64,000 nucleotides of DNA from a bacterium (GTDB lineage Bacteria; Patescibacteriota; Minisyncoccia; Phycocordibacterales; Zambryskibacteraceae): assembly GCA_030649135.1 (NCBI GenBank), contig JAUSGI010000008.1:32001-96000 (forward strand), read 5' to 3'. The translations under genes were made by a program, and so were the position numbers. Of this stretch, positions 53-45,436 are shown one piece after another (position 1 is the stretch's first letter; every line of letters begins with the position of its first letter). The notes beneath the pieces were generated by a model that worked only from the letters and a program-made list of their open reading frames with translations, ran no database searches and had not been told where the DNA came from.

Positions 53-3000
53 ATGACAAAACTCATGGGGGTAATTCTTAGCTTAGTGCTAATGGCCGGG
101 TCGGTCCAAGCGGCCACCTTAGATGACATAGTATTTACAGAAATAATGGCGACTCCCAATGCTGTGGCTGATGCCGACGGCGAGTGGATTGAAGTTCAGA
201 ACAATTCTTTAAGCCCAGTAGATATTGGAGGTTGGATATTAAACGATGGTTCAGATCACACTATTTCCGGACCTTATTCTATACCAGCGGGTGAGAAAGC
301 GGTAATCTGTCGCGACAATGATTCCTCTGTAAATGGAGGAGTTAAATGCCATTATCAATCAGTTATGGTCCTAACTGACATTGGTAAAACTCTGCAACTT
401 CTTGAGGGGGTGACCACTATAAACGAGGCTACATACGGAGACACTGCTGGAAATTCGGGAAAATCAGTTTATATTCCTAGTGGAAGTTTCGAGTCTGTTA
501 GTCAATTTGGAAATGGCGATTATGGAACTCCGGCTGGGAATGGTGCATCAATTGGAACTCATTCCTACGCTTCGATTCAGATTGCAATTGATGCGGCAAT
601 TTCCGGTAACACGATAGATGTTGGAGCGGGGACTTACGCGGAGAATGTTTCGCTTGACGGAAAGACAAATCTTACAATTCAAGGCGCTGGAGAGGCAACC
701 ATTATTGAACCAGCAAGCGGAATTGGTTTTGCAATTAAAAATTCAAGCGGCATAACAATAAAGAATCTTAAAATACATACCACAGGAACCAATGCCCATG
801 GTGTCTGGGTTGCGGGAACTCCGAATGGCGGAGCAACGGCGGTAACTGGTCTTACCGTACAAGATGACACCATAGTTGTTGACGGTTATTCCAGCGGCAT
901 TTACGCCGAACAAGTTGATACAACACCTCATTCTGGCTGGCTAATAACAGGGAACACTATAACTGTAAATCCTGGCGCTGGTGTTACTGGTGATGGAATG
1001 GACTTGCACGATGTGTCGGGTTCGGAGGTAAGCTACAACACAATAATTCTGAATACTCCGACTGATAGCACAAATGTTCTCTGGACAAGCGAATTGTCAA
1101 ATCTTTCTAGTCTCATATTCTCCAATAACACCATCAGTGGCTCAAGCGGTAGTGAGATAGCAATCCTAACTGATTTTCTGGATGCTCTAGCAGATACATC
1201 AATTACCACCGTAACAGTAAGTGGAAACACGTTCAGTAATTGGGGTTCTAGGGCCCTAAGAGTCGGGACGGCTAACGGAACCGGAGCGGTGACGGAAATC
1301 GCAGTAAATTCAAACATATTCCAAATGGCCGCCGACACAACAGAAGTTATCGGCGGCACGGCTGCGTCAAGTGCGACTGGTAGCGGCAATATCTTCAATG
1401 TTAGTGGGACAGCAAAAATTCAAAAAGCGGTAGACGGGGCATTTTCTGGCGACACGATAAATGTCGCAGCGGGGACTTATGACGAACAGGTCGTAATAGA
1501 TGGAGAAGACCTGATATTACAAGGTGTTGGTGATACAACTATCATCCGACCATCTGCACCCGCAACGCTTACCCAGACTTATACCTTCCCAGCCGGAACT
1601 TTTTGGTCTGGCACAACTGCATCAAGTATTATCCTAGTGGAAAATGCCAGCGCTGTTACTATAAAAGATCTTAAAGTAGACGGTATTAATGTTACCAGTT
1701 TGCCCTTAACAGGTTCGCCTGACAGACTCGTCGGAGTTCTTTTGGGAGTATCTTCAGGTACCATTGATAATGCTACGGTCACTTCCATTAAAACAGCTGG
1801 CTATGCAAACCGTACATATGGCATTGAAGTAAGTGGCGCTGATAGTGGCACTTACAGCGTTGAAGTTAAAAGTTCTCATATAACAGACTGGGCTCGTAAT
1901 GGGATTGTTGCAGATGGAACTAATCTTACGGCCAACATCAATCACAACACGCTTGTAGGTCCTGGTACTATCTCTGGGCAGGTCGCTAACGGCATTCTTT
2001 TCATTGGTGGAGCTGCTGGTAACACTACAAGTAATACTATCAGCGGAATGCACTACAACGCAGATCCAGTATCTCGCAGTGCCGGTATCTTGATTTATGG
2101 CGCAACCACGGCCGGAATCTTGATAGACCAAAATGACATTTCCGATACGGATGATGGAATAAATTTGTCGGCCAGTTCTCATAACGCGACTGTCAGCAAC
2201 AACAATCTGCATAATAATCTAGAAGTAGGTATACAACTAGAAAACGGGACAGCAAACAACGCCATAACTGGGAACACAATTGTTAATAATACAATGGCTG
2301 GTATACGTTTTGGCGGTGCAGGTGATCCGGTTCCCGCGGAAGCGGATACTCCACCTGGGGCAGGTAATGTTGCTAATGATAAAAATACGATTACTGGTAA
2401 CGCGAACGGTATAGTAAATTACGATACGGGTCTTGGACAGATATTTGATGCCGCCAACAACTGGTGGGGCAACGTGAGCGGACCGTTCAACACTACAAGC
2501 AATCCTTTGGGAACCGGTGATTCTATTTCCGACAATGTAAACTTTGTTCCGTGGTATTCCACTAGCGGAATGACGACGCTTGTTTCCGCAAACATGATTG
2601 CTTACAATACCGCCTTGGATGCCGTTAGTCAGACGGACTACACGACTGCAAGCTGGTCTGCCTACCAAGCAATTGTGACTGCCAATACGAGGACCGACCA
2701 AAACACTCAAACTGAAGTTGATGACGCGACGGCCGCAATCACTACCGCGCAACTTGATCTGATTGCTATTGCCGACCTCACTGATTACAACACCGCTTTA
2801 GACGCAGTTGTTGAAAGCGATTATACGACCGAAAGCTGGGCAACGTATCAAGCTATTGTGGACGCCAATGTGGTAACCGACCAACATACCCAAGCTGAAG
2901 TTGATACAGCAATCGATAATATTACCATCGCGCAAGATGATTTAGTGGCAACACTGGACGTAGCAAAAACAACGGCACATGAAGCTCTTACAACTGCTCG

Positions 3001-3985
3001 CGCGTTATATACAGATACAAACTACACCGCTGAAAATCTAGTGGTCTTAAACGGATTCAAGTCGGATGGCGATATCGCGATTGACTCCGCTTCAGACTTA
3101 GCCGGAGTGTCCACAGCGCAGAACACAGCTACTGCTGGAATGGCCGGTGTGTTAAAAAATACACAAACAGCTCCTGACGATGACGGAAATGCGACAATGG
3201 ACTCTGACACAACGGAAGTGGTTATCACAGACCCGGATCAACCTGTTGACATTACAATTGAAAGTGGCACAGAAAATCCGACAATTGATGTTAGTGCATT
3301 TATTACCGATGGAATAGGAATATTGCCGGAGATTACAATCAATTCCGACGTAGCGGATGTTATAATTCCGGATAGTACGACAGTGACTGGCCCGACTGAT
3401 TGGGATGGGGTCATTAGCGTACCAACGGCTACCACTACTACTGGCACTGCCCCAGCTGGGTTTAGCGTTGGCGGTACTGTTATCTCGGTCGGTTCGTCTC
3501 AAGGAACATTAACCTTCAGTAATCCCGTTACGATATTACTTGCAGGTGTTACTGGAACAGTTGGCTACAAACCAGCTGGTTCAGATACTTGGCAGACGAT
3601 AACCAATGTTTGTGCCGACCCGTATGCAACTCCAGGCAACCCTCCAGCCGGTAGCGAATGCGCAATATCAAATGGTACTGATACTAAAATTGTCACCTTC
3701 CACTTCACGGAATTTGGAGAATTAGATTCTATTCCAGCTACGCCTATCCCTCCTCGTTCAAGCAGGGCAGGAGACTTTTCTCCGGCCGCGCGCAGAGCAA
3801 TCTTGGCAGCGACACCCAATGCATCAGCAGTATCGGTTGTAGGTCAAGTCCTTGGAGCCTTCACTGAAGATGAAAGACAGGCTCAAATTGTGTCCGTCCG
3901 CGGGCAACTTATAGAGAAGATAAATCAACTAATCGGTCTCTTGCGGGTGCAACTTGCAGCGGCCATAACAGCAGGCGATCAATAA
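53..3985 (+). CDS. Large secreted surface protein: signal peptide, lamin-tail domain (LTD), right-handed parallel beta-helix (NosD-like) repeats, WWG..PWY cap module, two FIVAR-like ~55-aa tandem repeats, conserved C-terminal tail
   Basis: N-terminus MTKLMGVILSLVLMAGSVQA is signal-like. The segment IVFTEIMATPNAVADADGEWIEVQNN...GGWILND is typical of LTD. There are many GxxxxxN/T beta-helix rungs. The motif WWGNVSGPFNTTSNPLGTGDSISDNVNFVPWY is shared with the 7764-9692 protein. Repeats of form YNTALDAV..DYTT.SW..YQAIV.AN..TDQ.TQ.EVD.A are FIVAR-like. Confidence 0.85.
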   Translation: MTKLMGVILSLVLMAGSVQAATLDDIVFTEIMATPNAVADADGEWIEVQNNSLSPVDIGGWILNDGSDHTISGPYSIPAGEKAVICRDNDSSVNGGVKCHYQSVMVLTDIGKTLQLLEGVTTINEATYGDTAGNSGKSVYIPSGSFESVSQFGNGDYGTPAGNGASIGTHSYASIQIAIDAAISGNTIDVGAGTYAENVSLDGKTNLTIQGAGEATIIEPASGIGFAIKNSSGITIKNLKIHTTGTNAHGVWVAGTPNGGATAVTGLTVQDDTIVVDGYSSGIYAEQVDTTPHSGWLITGNTITVNPGAGVTGDGMDLHDVSGSEVSYNTIILNTPTDSTNVLWTSELSNLSSLIFSNNTISGSSGSEIAILTDFLDALADTSITTVTVSGNTFSNWGSRALRVGTANGTGAVTEIAVNSNIFQMAADTTEVIGGTAASSATGSGNIFNVSGTAKIQKAVDGAFSGDTINVAAGTYDEQVVIDGEDLILQGVGDTTIIRPSAPATLTQTYTFPAGTFWSGTTASSIILVENASAVTIKDLKVDGINVTSLPLTGSPDRLVGVLLGVSSGTIDNATVTSIKTAGYANRTYGIEVSGADSGTYSVEVKSSHITDWARNGIVADGTNLTANINHNTLVGPGTISGQVANGILFIGGAAGNTTSNTISGMHYNADPVSRSAGILIYGATTAGILIDQNDISDTDDGINLSASSHNATVSNNNLHNNLEVGIQLENGTANNAITGNTIVNNTMAGIRFGGAGDPVPAEADTPPGAGNVANDKNTITGNANGIVNYDTGLGQIFDAANNWWGNVSGPFNTTSNPLGTGDSISDNVNFVPWYSTSGMTTLVSANMIAYNTALDAVSQTDYTTASWSAYQAIVTANTRTDQNTQTEVDDATAAITTAQLDLIAIADLTDYNTALDAVVESDYTTESWATYQAIVDANVVTDQHTQAEVDTAIDNITIAQDDLVATLDVAKTTAHEALTTARALYTDTNYTAENLVVLNGFKSDGDIAIDSASDLAGVSTAQNTATAGMAGVLKNTQTAPDDDGNATMDSDTTEVVITDPDQPVDITIESGTENPTIDVSAFITDGIGILPEITINSDVADVIIPDSTTVTGPTDWDGVISVPTATTTTGTAPAGFSVGGTVISVGSSQGTLTFSNPVTILLAGVTGTVGYKPAGSDTWQTITNVCADPYATPGNPPAGSECAISNGTDTKIVTFHFTEFGELDSIPATPIPPRSSRAGDFSPAARRAILAATPNASAVSVVGQVLGAFTEDERQAQIVSVRGQLIEKINQLIGLLRVQLAAAITAGDQ

Positions 3986-3998
3986 CTCCCAAACGCTC

Positions 3999-4514
3999 CT
4001 ACGCGTGGTTGTATAACAGTTTAAGTTTCTCAAGCCCTCGGTGTGCTTGCACGGCCATAGCATTCTTTGATTGTCCGGTGATAAGAGCCATTTCTTTGAG
4101 TGACAGATTTTGCACGTACCGCATGCGTATCACTTTCTGGTATTTTGTCGGAAGATGTTGAATTAATAGGAGTGCCGCTTTCCCGTCTAGGGTGTTGAAA
4201 AGAAGTTCGGAATGTTCAACGCTCGGCTCGTAGCCTTTTTCAAGTAGGACATCAAGGGAAGTGGTTTTGTGCTTCCGATATTCATCAATGATAAGATTAT
4301 TGAGGACGTGGTAGAGAAAAGCTTTCATGACATCAATCTTCCCTCCTTTCACGAGGTAGGCCCATGTTTTCATGAAGGTGTCTTGTACTAAGTCTTCGCC
4401 CCTAGCATGGTCGTGTATCTTGAAAAAGGCATGTGCATTGAGTCCCTTTTCGTAGTCATTGTGTGCTAGGGTTAATACTGTCTGTTGGCGCACCTTCTGT
4501 TTGGGGGTCATCAT
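3999..4514 (-). CDS. RNA polymerase sigma factor, ECF (sigma-70 family) subfamily
   Basis: Region 2 DLVQDTFMKTW and region 4 LSLKEMALITGQSKNAMAVQAHRGLEKLK are present. Size 171 aa. Confidence 0.85.
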   Translation of the reverse strand: MMTPKQKVRQQTVLTLAHNDYEKGLNAHAFFKIHDHARGEDLVQDTFMKTWAYLVKGGKIDVMKAFLYHVLNNLIIDEYRKHKTTSLDVLLEKGYEPSVEHSELLFNTLDGKAALLLIQHLPTKYQKVIRMRYVQNLSLKEMALITGQSKNAMAVQAHRGLEKLKLLYNHA

Positions 4515-31625: not shown

Positions 31626-33941
31626 ATGAAAAAACCCGTCTCTCGCGCTAAACGCACACAAATTCTTTCCATCATCAAACGAGACGGTTCAGTAGTACCT
31701 TTTGATACTGGCAAAATTGCCCGCGCGGTAGAAAAAGCCATGCGCGCCGCCGGAGAGTTGGTAAATGGCGCGCCGGAGAGAATTGCGGAGGCCGTTTTCC
31801 AGAAAGTGCGCATGCCGAAAGAGGATAAGTCACTACCAACCCCAACTGTTGAGGGTGTGCAGGACTTGGTAGAAGCAGAACTCATGCTTCAGAAGTTTCT
31901 GGCCACCGCCAAGGCCTACATTCTCTACCGTGAAGAACGAACCAAGCTTCGTTACAAAGGTGTGGAAGTGCCGCAAAAAGTTAAAAAGCTTGCCACCGAC
32001 AGTAAAAAGTATTTTAAAAACCAACTCGGTGAATTTATTTATTATCGCACTTATTCCAAATGGATTGAGGATGAGAATCGCAGAGAAACTTGGATAGAGA
32101 CTGTCGATAGGTACATGGATTTTATGAAAGAGAATCTTGGACAGAAATTAAAAGATGCCGAATACGCAGAGGTGAGAGAATCTATTTTAAAACAAGAAGC
32201 TATGCCGTCTATGCGACTCTTGCAATTTGCGGGCAAGGCCGCTCGGGTAAATAATGTATGCGCGTACAACTGCTCTTATATCGCGCCGGAAGTTTTTCGT
32301 GATTTTTCCGAGATTATGTATATCTCGATGTCCGGTACTGGCGCAGGTTGGTCGGTAGAAAGCGAAAATATTCAGAAGTTGCCGCAAATTAAACGTCAGA
32401 CCGGTAAGAAACTGCCGACCTTCGTGGTGCCTGATAGTAAAGAAGGGTGGTGCGATGCACTCACGCTAGGTATGGAAACATGGGCAAACGGTTTGGATAT
32501 TGATTTTGATTTTTCCCAACTTCGTCCCGCCGGCGCCCGGCTGAAAACTATGGGAGGCAAGTCCTCGGGACCAGAGCCGTTGCGCGAACTCCTGACCTTT
32601 ACCAGGAGAAAGATGCTTGCCCGACAAGGCAAGCGGCTGGAAAACATTGATGCCCACGATATTATCTGTGAAATAGGCAATATCGTGGTGGCCGGAGGCG
32701 TGCGCCGTAGCGCCATGATTTCCCTCTCCGACCTCGAAGATAGCGCCATTCGTGATGCCAAGAAAGGACAATTTTGGAATACAGACCCGCAGAGAATGCT
32801 CGCCAATAACTCTGCCGTGTACGAGACCAAACCGACCAACACCGAATTTGTTGACGAGTGGCTGGCGCTGATGAAGTCCAATTCCGGGGAACGTGGCATT
32901 TATAATCGCGGCGGGTTACAGTTTACTTTGCCCAAACGTCGTCTGTCCCAGTTTACTTCCGAGACCATGCCGCGTTGGGGAGGCAATCCGTGCGGAGAAA
33001 TTATTCTGCAGTCAAAACAATTTTGTAATTTATCAGAAATTGTGGCGCGAGCGGAAGATACGGAAGCCACTTTACTGCGCAAACTAAAAGTTGCCACTAT
33101 TCTCGGGACGTATCAGGCATCGCTCACCAATTTTCCGTATCTCTCGAAAGAGTGGCAGGAAAATTGTGAGAAGGAAGCTCTGCTCGGTGTTTCTATCACC
33201 GGTCAGTGGGATTGTCCGGCCGTGCGCAAACCGGCAGTCATGCGAAAATTGCGCGATGAAGCTGTCAAAATAAATAAAGTGTATGCCAAGCGTTTCAGTA
33301 TCAATCAATCTACCTGCGTGACCTGCGTTAAGCCGTCCGGCAATCTTTCTCAAACAGTTGATTCCTCTTCCGGCATTCACCCGCGACATTCCGCATTCTA
33401 CATTCGACGTGTTCGCATTTCCAATACCGATTCACTTTTCAAAATGTTGCGTGACCAAGGTGTACCCTTCCATCCGGAAGTGGGACAAACTATGGAGAAT
33501 GCCACCACCTTCGTTTTGGATTTTCCGGTGAAAGCACCCGACCGCTCGGTCTTTAAAAATGACCAAAGTGCGATTGACCAGCTGGAATACTGGAAAATGG
33601 TGAAAGAAAATTTTACGGAGCATAATCCTTCCACCACTATTTCTATCGGTGATGACGAATGGATAGAAGTGGCAAACTGGATTTATAAAAATTGGGATAT
33701 TGTCGGGGGGCTGGCCTTCCTACCGCGCGAGAGCCATGTCTATAAACTCGCGCCCTATGAGGCCATTGATGAAAAGACATATACCGAGATGAATAAGCGC
33801 TTCGGGAACATTGATTTCTCCAAAATTGTGACCTACGAAGTGACTAACGAGCTTGACCAGAAGGCGGAACTTGCCTGTGTCAGCGGTGTTTGTGATGTTG
33901 ATGCCGTGGGGACATCGGCTGAACCCGGTTCCGTCAAATAG
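31626..33941 (+). CDS. nrdJ: Class II (adenosylcobalamin-dependent) ribonucleotide reductase with N-terminal ATP-cone
   Basis: ATP-cone VVPFDTGKIARAVEKA. Active-site block GGNPCGEIILQSKQFCNLSEI. 771 aa monomeric. Confidence 0.8.
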   Translation: MKKPVSRAKRTQILSIIKRDGSVVPFDTGKIARAVEKAMRAAGELVNGAPERIAEAVFQKVRMPKEDKSLPTPTVEGVQDLVEAELMLQKFLATAKAYILYREERTKLRYKGVEVPQKVKKLATDSKKYFKNQLGEFIYYRTYSKWIEDENRRETWIETVDRYMDFMKENLGQKLKDAEYAEVRESILKQEAMPSMRLLQFAGKAARVNNVCAYNCSYIAPEVFRDFSEIMYISMSGTGAGWSVESENIQKLPQIKRQTGKKLPTFVVPDSKEGWCDALTLGMETWANGLDIDFDFSQLRPAGARLKTMGGKSSGPEPLRELLTFTRRKMLARQGKRLENIDAHDIICEIGNIVVAGGVRRSAMISLSDLEDSAIRDAKKGQFWNTDPQRMLANNSAVYETKPTNTEFVDEWLALMKSNSGERGIYNRGGLQFTLPKRRLSQFTSETMPRWGGNPCGEIILQSKQFCNLSEIVARAEDTEATLLRKLKVATILGTYQASLTNFPYLSKEWQENCEKEALLGVSITGQWDCPAVRKPAVMRKLRDEAVKINKVYAKRFSINQSTCVTCVKPSGNLSQTVDSSSGIHPRHSAFYIRRVRISNTDSLFKMLRDQGVPFHPEVGQTMENATTFVLDFPVKAPDRSVFKNDQSAIDQLEYWKMVKENFTEHNPSTTISIGDDEWIEVANWIYKNWDIVGGLAFLPRESHVYKLAPYEAIDEKTYTEMNKRFGNIDFSKIVTYEVTNELDQKAELACVSGVCDVDAVGTSAEPGSVK

Positions 33942-40125: not shown

Positions 40126-40174
40126 ACTAAAGTTATCCCCTTTTTATCCCCTCCTTATCCCCAATACTAAAAAT

Positions 40175-40513: not shown

Positions 40514-40574
40514 TGGTCTCCCTTCTTCCGAAGTTATCTACCGCTATCTTATCATACTACTACTTATATGTCAA

Positions 40575-40620
40575 GGATAGCTTTTTTAGCGTTGGATTGG
40601 ATAAAGGATTTACGGTAGTA
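40575..40620 (-). pseudogene. Duplicated fragment of gyrB 3' end (encodes ...RKSFIQSNAKKAILDI*)
   Basis: The minus-strand translation matches the last 16 aa of gyrB (RKSFIQSNAKKAVLDV*) at 41604-41651. About 85% nt identity over ~45 nt; not part of any longer ORF. Confidence 0.5.
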
Positions 40621-40727
40621 ATAATTCTTGGTTTACTTTATTCATTAGTAGGTCTTGAGTGACTCGTTACTTTTGTGTTGGCAGTCATATTAGCTAAACA
40701 GATAGAGATACTTAACAAGTTGGACAG

Positions 40728-40916
40728 ATGATTAGTCATGTTCTACAAAATATCATTCTATTTTTTAGTTTAGTTGGTATATGGCACCTTATACTTTTAA
40801 TTCTTAGCAACACACAAAACAAAGAAACATTTAAAGTTGACGTTAAACCAGAATTAGCAGGAATTTTATTATTGTTGTTTGTGATTGTGCTTCTATCTTT
40901 ATCTGGAGAGTTATAG
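40728..40916 (+). CDS. Small two-TM membrane protein, hypothetical
   Basis: 62 aa with two hydrophobic helices; low GC. Confidence 0.3.
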   Translation: MISHVLQNIILFFSLVGIWHLILLILSNTQNKETFKVDVKPELAGILLLLFVIVLLSLSGEL

Positions 40917-41047
40917 TGATTAGGTTATCCACACCTATCCCCTAAAAATTGGCTATTTGCTCTCCATATTACTTTCATAGTATAGTATGGGTGTGTCTGC
41001 GGGACGTCAGTCCTATCTAGCCAAATATTGCGCTGGAGACAGGCACA

Positions 41048-41422
41048 CTAAAGGATGTCGCTTATGGCGGCATTTTTTAGTGTCTCATCGTCATCGGAAG
41101 ATCGTAGCCCTTTTCCAGTAGATGTTTGTATCATTTTTATATCCCTATATTGTTTAGTGAACCATGCTGGTACAACACTTAGGAATTCAATAGCACCGTT
41201 ACCTTCTTGTGTTACTACGACTTTTACACGGAATTTCTGCACTATGGCTACAAAACCCCAACAACGGATAACGACATTCATTGGCACCCAAAGTCCTCTC
41301 CGATTTACTTTCTTGTAAACGATTTCCTCATCGTATTCTTGAAATGTAGTAGACGTCTCAAGTATGAATTTCGCCTTCTCAAGCATGTCAAAACGAAGTA
41401 TTTGCGCTCTTTTATCTCTCAT
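41048..41422 (-). CDS. Hypothetical protein (124 aa) within insert between gyrB copies
   Basis: Open frame; no recognised domain. Confidence 0.35.
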   Translation of the reverse strand: MRDKRAQILRFDMLEKAKFILETSTTFQEYDEEIVYKKVNRRGLWVPMNVVIRCWGFVAIVQKFRVKVVVTQEGNGAIEFLSVVPAWFTKQYRDIKMIQTSTGKGLRSSDDDETLKNAAISDIL

Positions 41423-41603
41423 TTTCTTTGGCGCTCCATAAACAAGGTGGTTAAACCCCTCTGATGTAAAACGAATTTCCTGACCAAGTGCAGGACAGTT
41501 TACAGAAATAAATGTTTTTTAAAGTGCTGCGGCTTCCCGTTTTATCTGTTCATAGTCTGCAACACGCTCTTCTATTGATTTTTTGTCTGTCATTTTATAA
41601 AAA

Positions 41604-43559
41604 TCACACGTCTAAAACGGCTTTTTTAGCGTTTGATTGGATGAAAGATTTGCGGGAAGGGACGTCGGTGCCCATGAGAATGTCGAAAATACGGTCCGCT
41701 TCTCTCGCATCCACAACAGTTACTTGTTTAAGAATTCTCGCTTTTGGATCCATGGTTGTTTCCCAAAGTTCTTCCGAGTTCATTTCCCCGAGACCTTTAT
41801 AACGTTGGATGTCGGCGCCTTCGATAGTCTTCTCGTTTTTTTCTTCGTCGGAATAGACATAAATAATTTCTTTCCCTTTTTTGATTTTATAGAGCGGCGG
41901 TTGAGCGATGTAGACATAGCCGGCATCGATGAGCGGTCTGAAAAATCTATAAAGTAATGTCAAGAGTAGAGTACGGATATGCGCGCCATCAACATCGGCA
42001 TCGGTGGCAATAATAATTTTGTGATAACGGAGTTTAGTGATATCAAAAGTATCCCCTATTGCCGTGCCGAAGGCGATGACTAGGTTTTTAATCTGTTCGC
42101 TCGCGAGCATCTTATCTAGACGCGCGCGCTCAATATTGAGAATCTTACCGCGCAAAGGGAGTATGGCTTGGATGCGTCTGTCTCTTCCCATCTTGGCGGT
42201 ACCGCCAGCCGAATCTCCCTCAACGATAAAGAGCTCTGCTTCTTCTGGGGTAGTGCCAGACTGGCAATCAGAGAGTTTGCCAGGCAGAGTCATGCCCTCA
42301 AGCGCTCCTTTGCGCAGGACTGAGTCCTTGGCCGCCTTGGCGGCTTTGCGCGCCTTGAGCGCGAGTACCACCTTCTGAATCATACTTCTGGCATCATCGG
42401 GATTTTCCTCAAGATAGGCAGAGAATGCGTCACCGAAGACGGTATTAACCATGCTCTGGGCCTCCACGCTACCGAGTTTTGATTTGGTCTGTCCCTCAAA
42501 TTGAATCTCACGCAATTTAATCGAAATGACAGCAGTCAGACCCTCGAGCGCGTCATCTCCGGTGAAGTTATCCTCCTTTTCACTCACCATATTATTCTTG
42601 CGGGCGTATGAATTTAGACTTCTGGTCAGGGCAGTCTTGAAACCGGTAACGTGAGTACCGCCTTCAGTAGTGTAAATATTATTGGCGAAAGGCAGGATGC
42701 GGGAAGAGATATCATCGACATATTGCAGGGCCACCTCCACTGTCTCGTAGTCGTTACCGTTCGCCTTCTTCTCAACATAGAAAATATTTTTATGTATCGG
42801 TTTGTTTCGCTCATTTTCGAATCGTACGAGAGATACCAGTCCCCCTTCGAAATAAAAAGACATGGAAGGTGTTTCCAGTCCCAACTCTCGTAGATAAAAG
42901 ACTTCGCTATCGGCAACTTTTGCTATCCCTCGGGCATCCAGGACCGATATGCGGAGACCCTTGACGAGATATGCCTGCTGGCGCAAATGATCGGCAATCC
43001 GTTCGAAGTTGAAGTTGGTATCCGGGAAAATAGCGGGGTCCGGTTGAAAGGTAATGACGGTACCATGGAGTTTTGAGGCGCCAATTTTCTTGACTGCACT
43101 TTTTCTTTTGCCCTGGCTGTACTCTTGAGCATAAACTCCCCCATCTCGGTGCACTTCGGCCCGGCAATAAATAGAGAGAGCATTGACTACCGAGCCACCG
43201 ACGCCGTGTAGTCCTCCGGAGATTTTGTATCCCTCTCCGCCGAACTTGCCGCCGGCATGCAGGGTAGTCATGATGGTCTCGAGTGCCGAGACTTTGGTTT
43301 GTTTGTGCGTATCAACCGGAATACCCCGGCCGTTATCAACCACGCGGACACGATTGTTGGGCAAGAGCACAACCTCTATATCGTCGGCAAATCCCCCCAT
43401 GGCCTCATCCCGAGAGTTGTCGAAAATCTCCGTCACAAGGTGGTGGAGGCCGTCGGGACCGGTGGTACCGATATACATGCCTGGACGTTTGCGCACCGGC
43501 TCGAGACCCTCTAAGACCGTAATTGATTCAGCGCTGTAATTGCTCTCTTTTTTCGGCAT
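41604..43559 (-). CDS. gyrB: DNA gyrase subunit B
   Basis: GHKL ATPase LHAGGKFGGEGYKISGGLHGVG. Toprim EGDSAGG. C-terminal tail. Confidence 0.9.
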   Translation of the reverse strand: MPKKESNYSAESITVLEGLEPVRKRPGMYIGTTGPDGLHHLVTEIFDNSRDEAMGGFADDIEVVLLPNNRVRVVDNGRGIPVDTHKQTKVSALETIMTTLHAGGKFGGEGYKISGGLHGVGGSVVNALSIYCRAEVHRDGGVYAQEYSQGKRKSAVKKIGASKLHGTVITFQPDPAIFPDTNFNFERIADHLRQQAYLVKGLRISVLDARGIAKVADSEVFYLRELGLETPSMSFYFEGGLVSLVRFENERNKPIHKNIFYVEKKANGNDYETVEVALQYVDDISSRILPFANNIYTTEGGTHVTGFKTALTRSLNSYARKNNMVSEKEDNFTGDDALEGLTAVISIKLREIQFEGQTKSKLGSVEAQSMVNTVFGDAFSAYLEENPDDARSMIQKVVLALKARKAAKAAKDSVLRKGALEGMTLPGKLSDCQSGTTPEEAELFIVEGDSAGGTAKMGRDRRIQAILPLRGKILNIERARLDKMLASEQIKNLVIAFGTAIGDTFDITKLRYHKIIIATDADVDGAHIRTLLLTLLYRFFRPLIDAGYVYIAQPPLYKIKKGKEIIYVYSDEEKNEKTIEGADIQRYKGLGEMNSEELWETTMDPKARILKQVTVVDAREADRIFDILMGTDVPSRKSFIQSNAKKAVLDV

Positions 43560-43642
43560 TTAAGTTTCCCCTATTCTAGCATAAATAGAGCTAGAAAGAA
43601 AGAGAAAATGTGTCAAAAACCCATATATAGGTTATAATTTAA

Positions 43643-44125
43643 GTGATGGTTATTTCAGAAGACAAGATTAGACGAGCAATAGAAGAAAAAGAGATAAGTA
43701 TACAGCCATTCAATGGGTCTTTACTTAAAGATGTTAGTTACACTTTCACTCTAAGTAACAAGTTTTGTCTGCCAAAAGTTACTACCGAATTCATTGACGC
43801 AAGAGATTCTATAGAGTTTGAAGAAAAAGTGATGCCTGATGAAGGATACTTACTTAGGCCTGGAGAATTTATTGTCTGTTATACCAAAGAAAAAGTCACT
43901 TTAAATAACAAATTCGTTTGTTTAATAAGTACAAGAGCATCGTTAGCTCAAATGGGATTAAATGTTACTCAAGGTTCCTTCCTGACAGGATCTGATACGG
44001 ATAACATCTTTGCGCTAGAGACAAGTAATAATGGAAACCTGCCCATTAAATTATTCCCTGGAATGAAGATAGCGAAAGGGGTTTTCCTAAGAGTAGACTC
44101 GGATTCTAGTTCTAACATTGGGTGA
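43643..44125 (+). CDS. dcd: dCTP deaminase-like (dUTPase superfamily)
   Basis: VSYTFTLSNKF; LRPGEFIV; ISTRASLAQMGLNV; LFPGMKIAKGVFL. These align to the dCTP deaminase blocks. Confidence 0.65.
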   Translation: MMVISEDKIRRAIEEKEISIQPFNGSLLKDVSYTFTLSNKFCLPKVTTEFIDARDSIEFEEKVMPDEGYLLRPGEFIVCYTKEKVTLNNKFVCLISTRASLAQMGLNVTQGSFLTGSDTDNIFALETSNNGNLPIKLFPGMKIAKGVFLRVDSDSSSNIG

Positions 44126-44257
44126 TGTTTTGTATATACAATAAAATTATATTATGCTATAATCACAAGTGGATTATACGCCTGTTTTAAGGCCAGCCAT
44201 GCACTCTCCAGGCATTTCGGGACTTGAGCCCGTTCAGCCTAGAAAGGAGGGATGTGC

Positions 44258-44434
44258 ATGCTAAATGTGATTTCGCTGGATCAACCCGTCCGGTTCGTGG
44301 ATAGGTCGGGCCAGCCCTGCGAGGGGAAACCTCTATTTCTCTCGCGGGACACGTATGGTAACTGGGGTCTCTCTGTTCAATACAGTGAAACAGGGATTTC
44401 CTGGGTTGCTTTCGACCAAATCAAGCAGTAGTAC
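44258..44434 (+). CDS. Small hypothetical protein (58 aa) in GC-rich islet
   Basis: SD AAAGGAGGG immediately before ATGTGCATG. MLNVISLDQPVRFVDRSGQPCEGKPLFLSRDTYGNWGLSVQYSETGISWVAFDQIKQ. Below the track cutoff. Confidence 0.35.
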
Positions 44435-44910
44435 TGCTGGTCAAAAGCAATTGCCCGTCTAGAACAGACGTGAGCGGAAATCCACATGAAGTCCCTAAAT
44501 GGCAAGGGTATAAGTGTGGGCGAGACCGCAGACTCGGCATCCCTCTTGCCGTCTTCCAATGAGGCACGCATCTACTGTGGGCTGAGGAAGAGAAAAGAGA
44601 CAAGGCGATTGGTTCCCAATCGTCTTCCGTCCAAAGTTTGTTTATGAAAATAGATTTTGGACGGAGGAGGTATCCCAATATATCCATGACCTAACTAGGC
44701 CATTATTTTAGAGCGTATTTAATACCATCAATCATGATTGACTTATCTATTTACATATGCTATCATTAACAGCAGATTAGATCGCAAGGCTTCCGTTCCC
44801 CGCCAGTTAAAGGGGATTACAAACCGGCATCGACTCACAAGATGAGTCATGCCAATGAAGTTCCTTCAAGAGTCTCAGTCACACAAGTGACTAGACGCGG
44901 GAGAAGTAAA

Positions 44911-45258
44911 ATGTGGTATCAGTACGGATGGGGAGAAGAGAAGGACATGCAGCGCTCAGCAGAGCGTTGGATGTGCAAGGGGTTTCAAGTTCGGGCCAAC
45001 CTCCAGCAGGGGACGGCTTGGGCCCTCGTGTCGGATTTCACCTTCCCTGGTGCGATCCCACATGAGACTTGCCCGGATTGTAGGGGAACCGGCTGGTGCT
45101 CGCACCATATCCCGGACTGCCCTGGCGAGCAGGTCTGCGACGGGAAGTGCTACACGTGCGTCGAGAGCGGGACGATCTGCCTCCAGCCCACCTGGGCGGA
45201 GGGTCGGGTCGTAACGCTCGAGGAAGCGGTGGCCTACCTGAAGCAGGGCCATCACTAA
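44911..45258 (+). CDS. Cys-rich protein with DnaJ-type CxxCxGxG zinc-finger-like motifs, GC-rich
   Basis: CPDCRGTGWCSHHIPDCPGEQVCDGKCYTCVESGTIC. Strong terminator downstream. The start is probably MWYQYGWG, after a GGAGAAG SD. Confidence 0.45.
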   Translation: MWYQYGWGEEKDMQRSAERWMCKGFQVRANLQQGTAWALVSDFTFPGAIPHETCPDCRGTGWCSHHIPDCPGEQVCDGKCYTCVESGTICLQPTWAEGRVVTLEEAVAYLKQGHH

Positions 45259-45275
45259 GATCACAACGTGTCACC

Positions 45276-45318
45276 AAGGCCCTGCGCGACTAGCAATCGC
45301 GCAGGGCCACTTCTTTTT
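45276..45318 (+). terminator. Rho-independent terminator
   Basis: ggccctgcgcgactagcaatcgcgcagggcc then acttcttttt. Confidence 0.6.
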
Positions 45319-45436
45319 ACACTCCTTCTTCTATTCTCGTTCTTACATTTATAATACGCTGTAGCGTAAATTAAGTGTATACGTTATAAAGTGTCTATAG
45401 GTAGAAGATAACGTGTGTATATATCTTCTTAAAAAC

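Follow-up and report, generated by a model that had tools for sequence, protein, structure and literature searches.

A displaced gyrB end beside an LPD3-protein and small-RNA cassette in a Zambryskibacteria genome: a probable recombination scar and a candidate toxin/RNA-antidote module

In the 64,000-nt stretch of DNA analyzed here (hereafter the window; positions 32,001–96,000 of the forward strand of contig JAUSGI010000008.1, GenBank assembly GCA_030649135.1, from a patescibacterium of the family Zambryskibacteraceae), the gyrB gene is followed by a segment of about 1 kb, at the far end of which the last codons of gyrB occur a second time. The GyrB protein of the window is 100% identical to a database protein (P0121) from an NCBI metagenome-assembled genome, and the best relatives that carry a name belong to Zambryskibacteria. 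The two gyrB ends enclose, among other features, a two-gene cassette, consisting of an interrupted gene for a protein of the LPD3 family and a convergent gene for a small RNA. The features on which the argument turns are as follows:

41604–43559, minus strand: gyrB, 651 amino acids (aa), identified from its open reading frame (ORF) and Pfam domains
41604–41655, minus strand: copy A, the functional last 16 codons and TGA stop of gyrB
41048–41593, minus strand: LPD3-family gene of 181 codons, interrupted, with a RelE/BECR-like predicted core
40990–41083, plus strand: small-RNA gene of ~94 nt, convergent with the LPD3 gene, identified by fold and covariance model
40957–40986, plus strand: small-RNA promoter (–35 box TTGCTC at 40957–40962, 18-nt spacer, –10 box TATAGT at 40981–40986)
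40564–40615, minus strand: copy B, a displaced gyrB end of 16 codons and a TAA stop, untranslatable

Copies A and B form a direct repeat with an offset of 1040 nt, and aligning them to each other without gaps gave 40/52 identical nucleotides. The expected number of chance matches of at least 40/52 to copy A (64-kb window, both strands) is 9e-10, and the second-best ungapped match to copy A on either strand of the window reached 28/52. The duplication of the gyrB 3′ end, which a preliminary description of the locus had pointed out while allowing that proper alignment might bring the match below chance, is thus real. The copies translate to RKSFIQSNAKKAVLDV and RKSFIQSNAKKAILDI, and their longest identical core measures 14 nt (GCTTTTTTAGCGTT, at 40580–40593 and 41620–41633). 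Among the 12 differences between them are five single synonymous third-position changes, one double synonymous change in a Leu codon, two Val-to-Ile changes, and the TGA versus TAA stop; 12 randomly placed substitutions would keep the frame, the stop, and at most two amino-acid changes with P = 5e-6. Since the differences are synonymous or conservative, the copies are gene ends of different lineages and not a fresh target duplication, and this coding-type divergence likewise rules out a decaying local duplicate. For most of the time over which they diverged, both copies thus evolved as working gyrB ends in separate lineages. Copy B is untranslatable because in-frame stop codons precede it, and it has no start codon of its own; copy A is followed by TTTTTATAAA and then by the ATG of the cassette gene. 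The GC content is 29–43% between the copies vs. 44–57% in gyrB.

The closest relative (L061, with 94% aa identity in GyrB) is free of the cassette and shows the order pheS, 59 nt, gyrB, 163 nt, mraZ-rsmH-ftsL-ftsI. Its uninterrupted gyrB–163 nt–mraZ arrangement bears out the earlier proposal that the segment in the window is DNA acquired at the gyrB terminus. In at least 11 related contigs (L065–L068, L071–L074, L076, L077, and L095), gyrB is directly followed by the cassette, and a second gyrB end was absent from all of these cassette-bearing contigs; in the four that were checked in detail, no repeat of the gyrB end was present anywhere between gyrB and mraZ. The junction between gyrB and the cassette (i.e., stop codon, TTTTT[A/T]TAAA, ATG) is the same in L068 as in the window, and shows small differences in L065 and L066. 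Homology between the window and the six relatives that reach far enough is unbroken from gyrB to 40609–40615 and resumes at 40164, upstream of mraZ, so that two further features have to be added:

40609–40616, no strand: breakpoint between the putatively imported block and copy B, where homology ends in all relatives reaching there
40615–40731, plus strand: remnant of a 48-aa ORF with a transmembrane (TM) segment, with copy B in place of its first ~10 codons

On its inner side, copy B thus does not meet the end of an element: the sequence breaks there within a 48-aa ORF that these relatives carry in intact form. Partial microhomology was found at this breakpoint (donor TGCAAAC vs. window CGTAAAT). 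In L065, L066, and L067, the intact 48-aa ORF and a 186-aa ORF are located where the window has copy B and a 76-aa gene.

The duplicated gene end had been presented in the preliminary description as the signature of site-specific integration. In such a scenario, the gyrB 3′ end would have acted as the attB site for an element with a gyrB-like attP, whose integrase would since have been lost. The direct repeat of a gene 3′ end with its 14-nt identical core, the low GC content, and the descent of the repeat copies from different lineages (as for attP-borne gene ends) could all be accommodated in this way, and integrative elements at the 3′ ends of tRNA or protein genes indeed resemble the locus in that a gene-end repeat brackets acquired DNA, the incoming end keeps the gene intact, and the two copies stem from different lineages. 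However, the 14-nt core is weak evidence for an att site, because conservation of the NAKKA codons also predicts a core of this length, and the relatives carry the block without the second gyrB end, which the preliminary description had itself named as grounds for refutation, so the proposed signature does not stand. Moreover, neither the block nor any of ~140 related loci yielded a recombinase, in line with the earlier remark that the segment lacks an integrase (none was present among the ORFs between 40000 and 42000, nor was one detected by Pfam, PHROGs, PADLOC, or NCBIfam), and the right-hand edge of the block cuts through an ORF. Other cassette loci repeat different genes, at either their 5′ or 3′ ends and over 18–190 nt, so that no common att site or att core is conserved across loci. 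Taken together, we consider an integrative element highly improbable. A tRNA or tmRNA gene as integration target was also rejected, since none is located near the repeat.

The other option raised initially, i.e., a rearrangement scar, came closer. The explanation that we favor as a whole, with moderate confidence, is that the repeat is the recombination scar of the import of the block behind gyrB, and that the cassette is a toxin/RNA-antidote module. A fragment from a cassette-bearing relative, comprising part of gyrB, the cassette, a 62-aa ORF, and part of the 48-aa ORF, would have entered the lineage, after which one of its ends would have recombined by homology inside gyrB and the other would have been joined illegitimately, at a stretch of short microhomology located 52 nt ahead of the stop codon of the resident gyrB. 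Since the joint would lie 52 nt before that stop, the resident gene end would have been displaced instead of deleted: gyrB would now end in donor sequence (copy A), and the resident last 16 codons (copy B) would have been moved 1 kb away as a dead relic. This process would correspond to homology-facilitated illegitimate recombination (HFIR), and would need neither an integrase nor an att site. HFIR is an established mechanism in naturally transformable bacteria and in Escherichia coli conjugation, in which a fragment that enters the cell is exchanged by homology at one of its ends and joined illegitimately at the other (PMC3240628). As in HFIR products, the block is continuous with homology to the recipient gene (gyrB) on one flank, the other flank is a novel microhomology joint that truncates the donor 48-aa ORF, and no dedicated recombinase is present. 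The locus differs from HFIR products in that the event is deduced from comparative genomics of an uncultivated patescibacterium, in that a gene end was duplicated and not DNA deleted, and in that scars of this kind are seen at about one in four loci of a single cassette family.

As to the direction of the event, nucleotide identity to L061 was 87% in the 5′ third of gyrB and 86% on the mraZ side (mraZ-rsmH), vs. 74–81% to the cassette-bearing relatives. This proximity of both flanks to L061 fits, without being decisive, a cassette-free resident that would have received the 3′ part of gyrB together with the block, and copy B is then probably the resident gene end. At third codon positions of gyrB, identity between the window and L061 decreased from 0.70 (codons 1–300) to 0.60 (codons 301–651), with no sharp breakpoint being resolved, and identity to the cassette-bearing relatives shifted from 0.42–0.53 to 0.50–0.57 past codon ~300. 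Over the 3′ two-thirds of the gene, L061 and the cassette-bearing relatives are thus roughly equally distant from the window, and this part of gyrB may have come in together with the cassette.

The event could also have run in reverse, with a lineage of the order gyrB–cassette–62-aa ORF–48-aa ORF–186-aa ORF receiving a cassette-free fragment (gyrB 3′ end, 76-aa gene, and mraZ upstream region) that was anchored at mraZ and joined inside the 48-aa ORF, replacing the 186-aa gene and making copy B the foreign copy. The junction logic would simply be mirrored, copy A is nearer to the sister gyrB end than copy B is (7 vs. 11 differences), and the family of the 76-aa gene is patchy and found in several contexts. 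Nevertheless, both backbones (i.e., the 5′ third of gyrB and mraZ-rsmH) are nearest to the cassette-free L061, which makes this reverse course distinctly unlikely.

Integration of Campbell type, in which a 1,040-nt donor fragment (from the Arg636 codon of gyrB to the middle of the 48-aa ORF) would have circularized and entered by a single crossover in the ~52-nt gene end, yields exactly the observed topology of repeat, 1040 nt, and repeat. Both copies would then be donor/resident hybrids around the 14-nt core, and this core is indeed situated mid-repeat, with eight differences in the last 16 nt vs. four in the first 21 nt; the short bracketing repeats at other cassette loci (see below) would be explained as well. 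However, a 14-nt core within 52 nt of 77% identity offers very little length for RecA-type recombination, closure of the circle would still require illegitimate end-joining, and the drop in similarity between the window and L061 across the 3′ two-thirds of gyrB is not predicted. Overall, we regard this course as unlikely.

Direct repeats that bracket the cassette were not confined to the window. When the 600 nt upstream of the cassette were compared with the ~700 nt downstream of it, such repeats were found at 22/96 non-redundant cassette loci vs. 8/253 control positions on the same contigs (Fisher P = 5e-8), after L082, L097, and L134 had been removed from the count as artifacts caused by genes cut by contig ends. 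Repeats that copied the 3′ end of the gene upstream involved murA, gatA, PNPase, and a sigma factor, and those that copied the 5′ end of the gene downstream involved rarA, a transporter of EamA type, and a large protein. Coding-type divergence was seen in the sigma-factor repeat (16 differences with one amino-acid change, P < 5e-6) and the murA repeat (P = 0.01), and was borderline in the PNPase repeat (P = 0.04).

An element that mobilizes itself could in principle leave such a pattern, if the LPD3 protein and its RNA were to cut or target DNA at the ends of conserved genes in a homing-like manner and the duplications were the resulting footprint. The tight linkage of protein and RNA, the far higher frequency of bracketing repeats at the cassette than at control positions, and the location of repeats near the RNA promoter in several loci speak for this possibility. 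Against it, the predicted protein fold appears to be like that of RNase toxins and not that of DNA nucleases or recombinases, neither of these domains was found (with no Pfam match to LAGLIDADG, GIY-YIG, HNH, or PD-(D/E)xK nuclease domains in 80 diverse family members), the repeats are gene ends of different lineages and not fresh target duplications, and ~77% of the loci have no detectable repeat. In addition, the longest match of the variable P3 arm of the RNA averaged 6.97 nt to its own flanks vs. 7.05 nt to those of other loci, and RNA-guided insertion was rejected on the basis of this lack of excess complementarity. Self-mobilization therefore seems very unlikely.

A number of observations weigh against the import of the block from a cassette-bearing relative as favored above. 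Copy B differs at 10–12 of 51 nt from every gyrB end sampled (11/51 for L061), and it is copy A that is closer to the gyrB end of L061 (7/51 differences). The mosaic signal in gyrB is modest and near synonymous-site saturation, no genome of the donor or the recipient turned up that would be near enough for the event to be seen directly, and the sequence comparisons do not settle its direction. Since the cassette loci were set against random positions rather than against other accessory genes, insertions of any kind in these compact genomes may leave such scars, which would then not be specific to the cassette. Finally, the arrangement of copies A and B is known from one assembled contig, and a metagenome scan for the joint of copy B with the sequence downstream of it returned no second instance (0 matches). 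The joint at copy B may be an assembly chimera, against which it can be held that its two sides have no long k-mer in common.

Two of the other cassette loci had an unusual organization. In L020 (3847–5921), the cassette and a spacer with an 87-aa ORF are present as a tandem duplicate with a period of ~1145 nt and ~82–84% identity. In L048 (1217–4078), two inverted LPD3 and small-RNA cassettes (1727–2265 and 3513–4078) are separated by an ORF with an HFHLIL motif (2459–3166) that by eye, and without a domain search, looks like a Y1/REP-associated transposase, and an ORF at 1217–1489 resembles, again by eye, a RelE/ParE toxin. Some cassette contigs among L004–L060 are labeled as Gammaproteobacteria, Syntrophobacteraceae, Thiocapsa, or Odoribacter (the last being L020), yet both their neighboring genes and their cassette look patescibacterial, and they are probably mis-binned or contaminating.

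Turning to the cassette itself, the LPD3-family gene of the window is broken by an in-frame TAA at 41519–41521, which sits at codon 25, where homologues have a near-invariant Tyr. Because the TAA replaces this Tyr25, the gene is best read as a pseudogene, or possibly as bearing a sequencing error. The 124-aa ORF that had been listed between the gyrB ends is present, but it is only the tail of the 181-codon gene. Programmed read-through of the TAA was rejected as an explanation, since the other “124-aa” entries reflect a truncation by the contig end (L151) or a 5′-deleted copy (L152), different from the stop in the window. The remnant of the 48-aa ORF carries a TGG-to-TGA change at 40660–40662 as a second nonsense lesion besides the LPD3 TAA, and these lesions, together with the truncation of the 48-aa ORF, confirm the earlier suspicion that the segment is decaying. 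A second decayed LPD3 gene was found in L152 (1–170), in which the first ~40 codons have been swapped for unrelated, stop-containing sequence.

Homologues of the LPD3 protein are abundant in Patescibacteria/Paceibacterota, with 163 close ones (~181 aa in full length and at most 92% identical), and a profile search recovered 906 cluster representatives, mostly of 130–180 aa. The homologue P0001 (92% identical to the window ORF) scored 27.2 bits against the Pfam LPD3 profile (PF18798), for which the cut-off is 27, and the interrupted window ORF scored 19.7 bits; among 80 diverse family members, 35 matched Pfam LPD3 (best E-value 8e-8), and one weakly matched PBECR4. Judged by these profile matches, the cassette protein family belongs to LPD3. 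His49 and Arg59 were invariant across the same 80 members. An AlphaFold2 model with modest scores (mean predicted local distance difference test of 79 and predicted template modeling score of 0.74) showed a predicted soluble alpha/beta fold with a long helix at the N terminus, one small hairpin, three helices, and an antiparallel sheet of four strands, and the core of this model looked like that of the toxin RNases RelE, CdiA-CT, and BrnT. Foldseek returned no significant match of this model to the PDB, a sequence-profile search of the PDB found nothing, and PHROGs, NCBIfam, and PADLOC gave nothing for the cassette protein except a weak match to PDC-M04B. The top viral structure matches of the model were LPD3 polyvalent proteins. 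A check of databases for the 124-aa protein, including viral ones, had been proposed at the outset; homologues turned out to be many in Patescibacteria, but none were found on viral contigs, so a phage vector for the cassette is not supported.

LPD3 is described as a domain of unknown function in the polyvalent proteins of phages and conjugative elements, with no function assigned (Iyer et al. 2017, PMC5512222). The cassette protein resembles the LPD3 of these polyvalent proteins in its sequence-level membership and its best viral structure matches, and differs from it in being a stand-alone chromosomal protein of Patescibacteria with a dedicated small-RNA partner. In terms of fold, the BECR-type toxin ribonucleases RelE/ParE, BrnT, CdiA-CT, and colicin D are among the closest known systems.

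The inventory of two ORFs initially given for the segment was incomplete, in that the small-RNA gene on the opposite strand had been missed. The RNA is predicted to consist of a three-way junction (P1, P2, and P3; ~57 nt), an ACUAAAG linker, and an intrinsic terminator (arms 41045–41061 and 41067–41083), which overlaps the LPD3 gene over the final 36 nt of its coding sequence. An alignment of 38 loci revealed the same order of sigma-70 promoter (TTGACx, ~17 nt, TATAAT), three-way junction, linker, and terminator. The promoter in the window aligns with this conserved one and was read from the sequence; a simple promoter scan omitted 40957–40986. The fold energy of the plus strand was –44.6 kcal/mol (z = –6.3), whereas the minus strand had z = –3.4, and alignments and RNAalifold also supported the structure. 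A covariance model derived from 32 sequences scored the window RNA at 95.8 bits and detected the RNA beside the LPD3 gene, always convergent, at 56/57 loci in the genome collection and 40/40 metagenome/assembly loci; it gave no match in four cassette-free loci. Across 90 distinct sequences, 98.3% of the cells were paired, vs. 85.5% in shuffles and 27–53% in slid controls, and 18/22 pairs had changed on both sides. The transcribed strand could be fixed because G-U pairs are frequent.

No family in Rfam 15 corresponded to the small RNA, either at gathering thresholds or at permissive E-values (the best being Atu_C8, with 21.5 bits vs. a threshold of 50), and two tRNAs were the sole Rfam matches at gathering in the window. 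By comparative sequence evidence, the small RNA thus founds a new family of RNAs that is well supported and has no entry in Rfam 15, and its gene in the window looks intact. DNA similarity between the window and unrelated cassette loci extends from the start codon of the LPD3 gene to ~60 nt past its stop, ending near 40980, and the small-RNA stretch is conserved even where the LPD3 proteins are <30% identical. Within the close group of loci, the complement of the terminator stem and U-tract encodes a C-terminal (E/D)(V/T)LKNA, so that one DNA stretch serves both genes, and it is the terminator overlap that imposes the conserved “LKNA” motif at the C terminus. In distant members, just one shared terminator lies between the LPD3 and RNA genes. 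To our knowledge, almost no regulatory RNAs are known in the phylum Patescibacteria.

The two-gene combination of LPD3 protein and small RNA appears to be widespread in Patescibacteria, and since no description of it was found in the literature searched, the cassette is apparently undescribed. Functionally, the LPD3 protein would be a RelE/BECR-like ribonuclease toxin, and the small RNA would be its putative antidote, acting by protein binding and/or by the overlap of the 3′ transcript ends. An addictive or defensive module of this kind would be kept once it has landed, and this retention would explain why it is present at numerous sites, frequently with the end of a neighboring gene duplicated around it. 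From the strict pairing of both genes, the patchy distribution over multiple sites, and the decay of the protein gene next to an intact RNA (in both the window and L152), we infer the behavior expected of a toxin with an RNA antidote. A less extreme reading than self-mobilization, which we consider somewhat less likely than not, is that the cassette represents a novel class of module, acting as an RNA antitoxin system or in abortive infection and restricted to Patescibacteria.

In comparison with known systems, the cassette is like toxin-antitoxin systems with RNA antitoxins, i.e., those of type III (ToxIN, CptIN, TenpIN, and AvcID) and type I, in that a small protein with a toxin-like fold is strictly paired with a small RNA, and in that it is patchy, found in multiple contexts, and sometimes multi-copy; in the window, moreover, the toxin gene is inactivated next to an RNA that looks intact. 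Some type I systems also have convergent transcripts that overlap at their 3′ ends, such as bsrG/SR4 and txpA/RatA of Bacillus subtilis. Three points count against the toxin/antidote proposal. Type III antitoxin RNAs are encoded by an upstream tandem-repeat array on the same strand, whereas the cassette has no such array and its RNA is single-copy, downstream, convergent, and equipped with its own promoter. The toxins of type I systems are short hydrophobic peptides, whereas the cassette protein is 130–181 aa long and predicted to be soluble. Finally, pairing between each RNA and the translation start of its cognate LPD3 gene had the same duplex energies as non-cognate pairing (P = 0.35), and antisense control of the LPD3 translation start was rejected on this basis.

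The remaining genes in and around the block can be listed as follows:

40728–40916, plus strand: intact 62-aa ORF with two TM segments, 79% identical to the 62-aa ORF of L065
40283–40513, minus strand: GC-rich 76-aa gene between copy B and the mraZ upstream region (from 40164)
43560–45436: spacer between pheS and gyrB
43643–44125, plus strand: dCTP-deaminase-like gene of low GC content, within this spacer
44252–44431: 59-aa ORF, within this spacer
44842–45258, plus strand: 138-aa ORF of 58–66% GC without family match, within this spacer

The 62-aa ORF accompanies the cassette in the gyrB-linked lineage only and lies outside the conserved cassette. The family of the 76-aa gene comprises 18 database proteins (52–72% identical) without a domain match, and the ORF in the window has a GC content of 57–59%. 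This gene had been suggested to be part of the same acquired block, yet it lies beyond the breakpoint, it is absent in the cassette-bearing relatives, and elsewhere it has homologues in unrelated genomic surroundings. The pheS-gyrB spacer measures 1.88 kb in the window vs. 59 nt in L061, and no duplicated pheS or gyrB ends were found in this insertion upstream of gyrB. Because of the spacer insertion and the downstream block, gyrB is flanked by strain-specific insertions on both sides.

For the annotation of such genomes, duplicated gene termini should not be taken for att sites without a check of relatives. The displaced gene ends of other lineages that bracket about a quarter of the cassette loci document, at the level of sequence, the entry of accessory DNA into the compact genomes of uncultivated Patescibacteria. 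They suggest that conserved housekeeping genes serve as anchors for recombination, and do not point to dedicated integrases. The strictly linked RNA partner, which covariation supports, and the toxin-RNase-like predicted fold make the role of LPD3 directly testable and, should the cassette indeed be a new RNA-antitoxin module, this would be the first function for LPD3.

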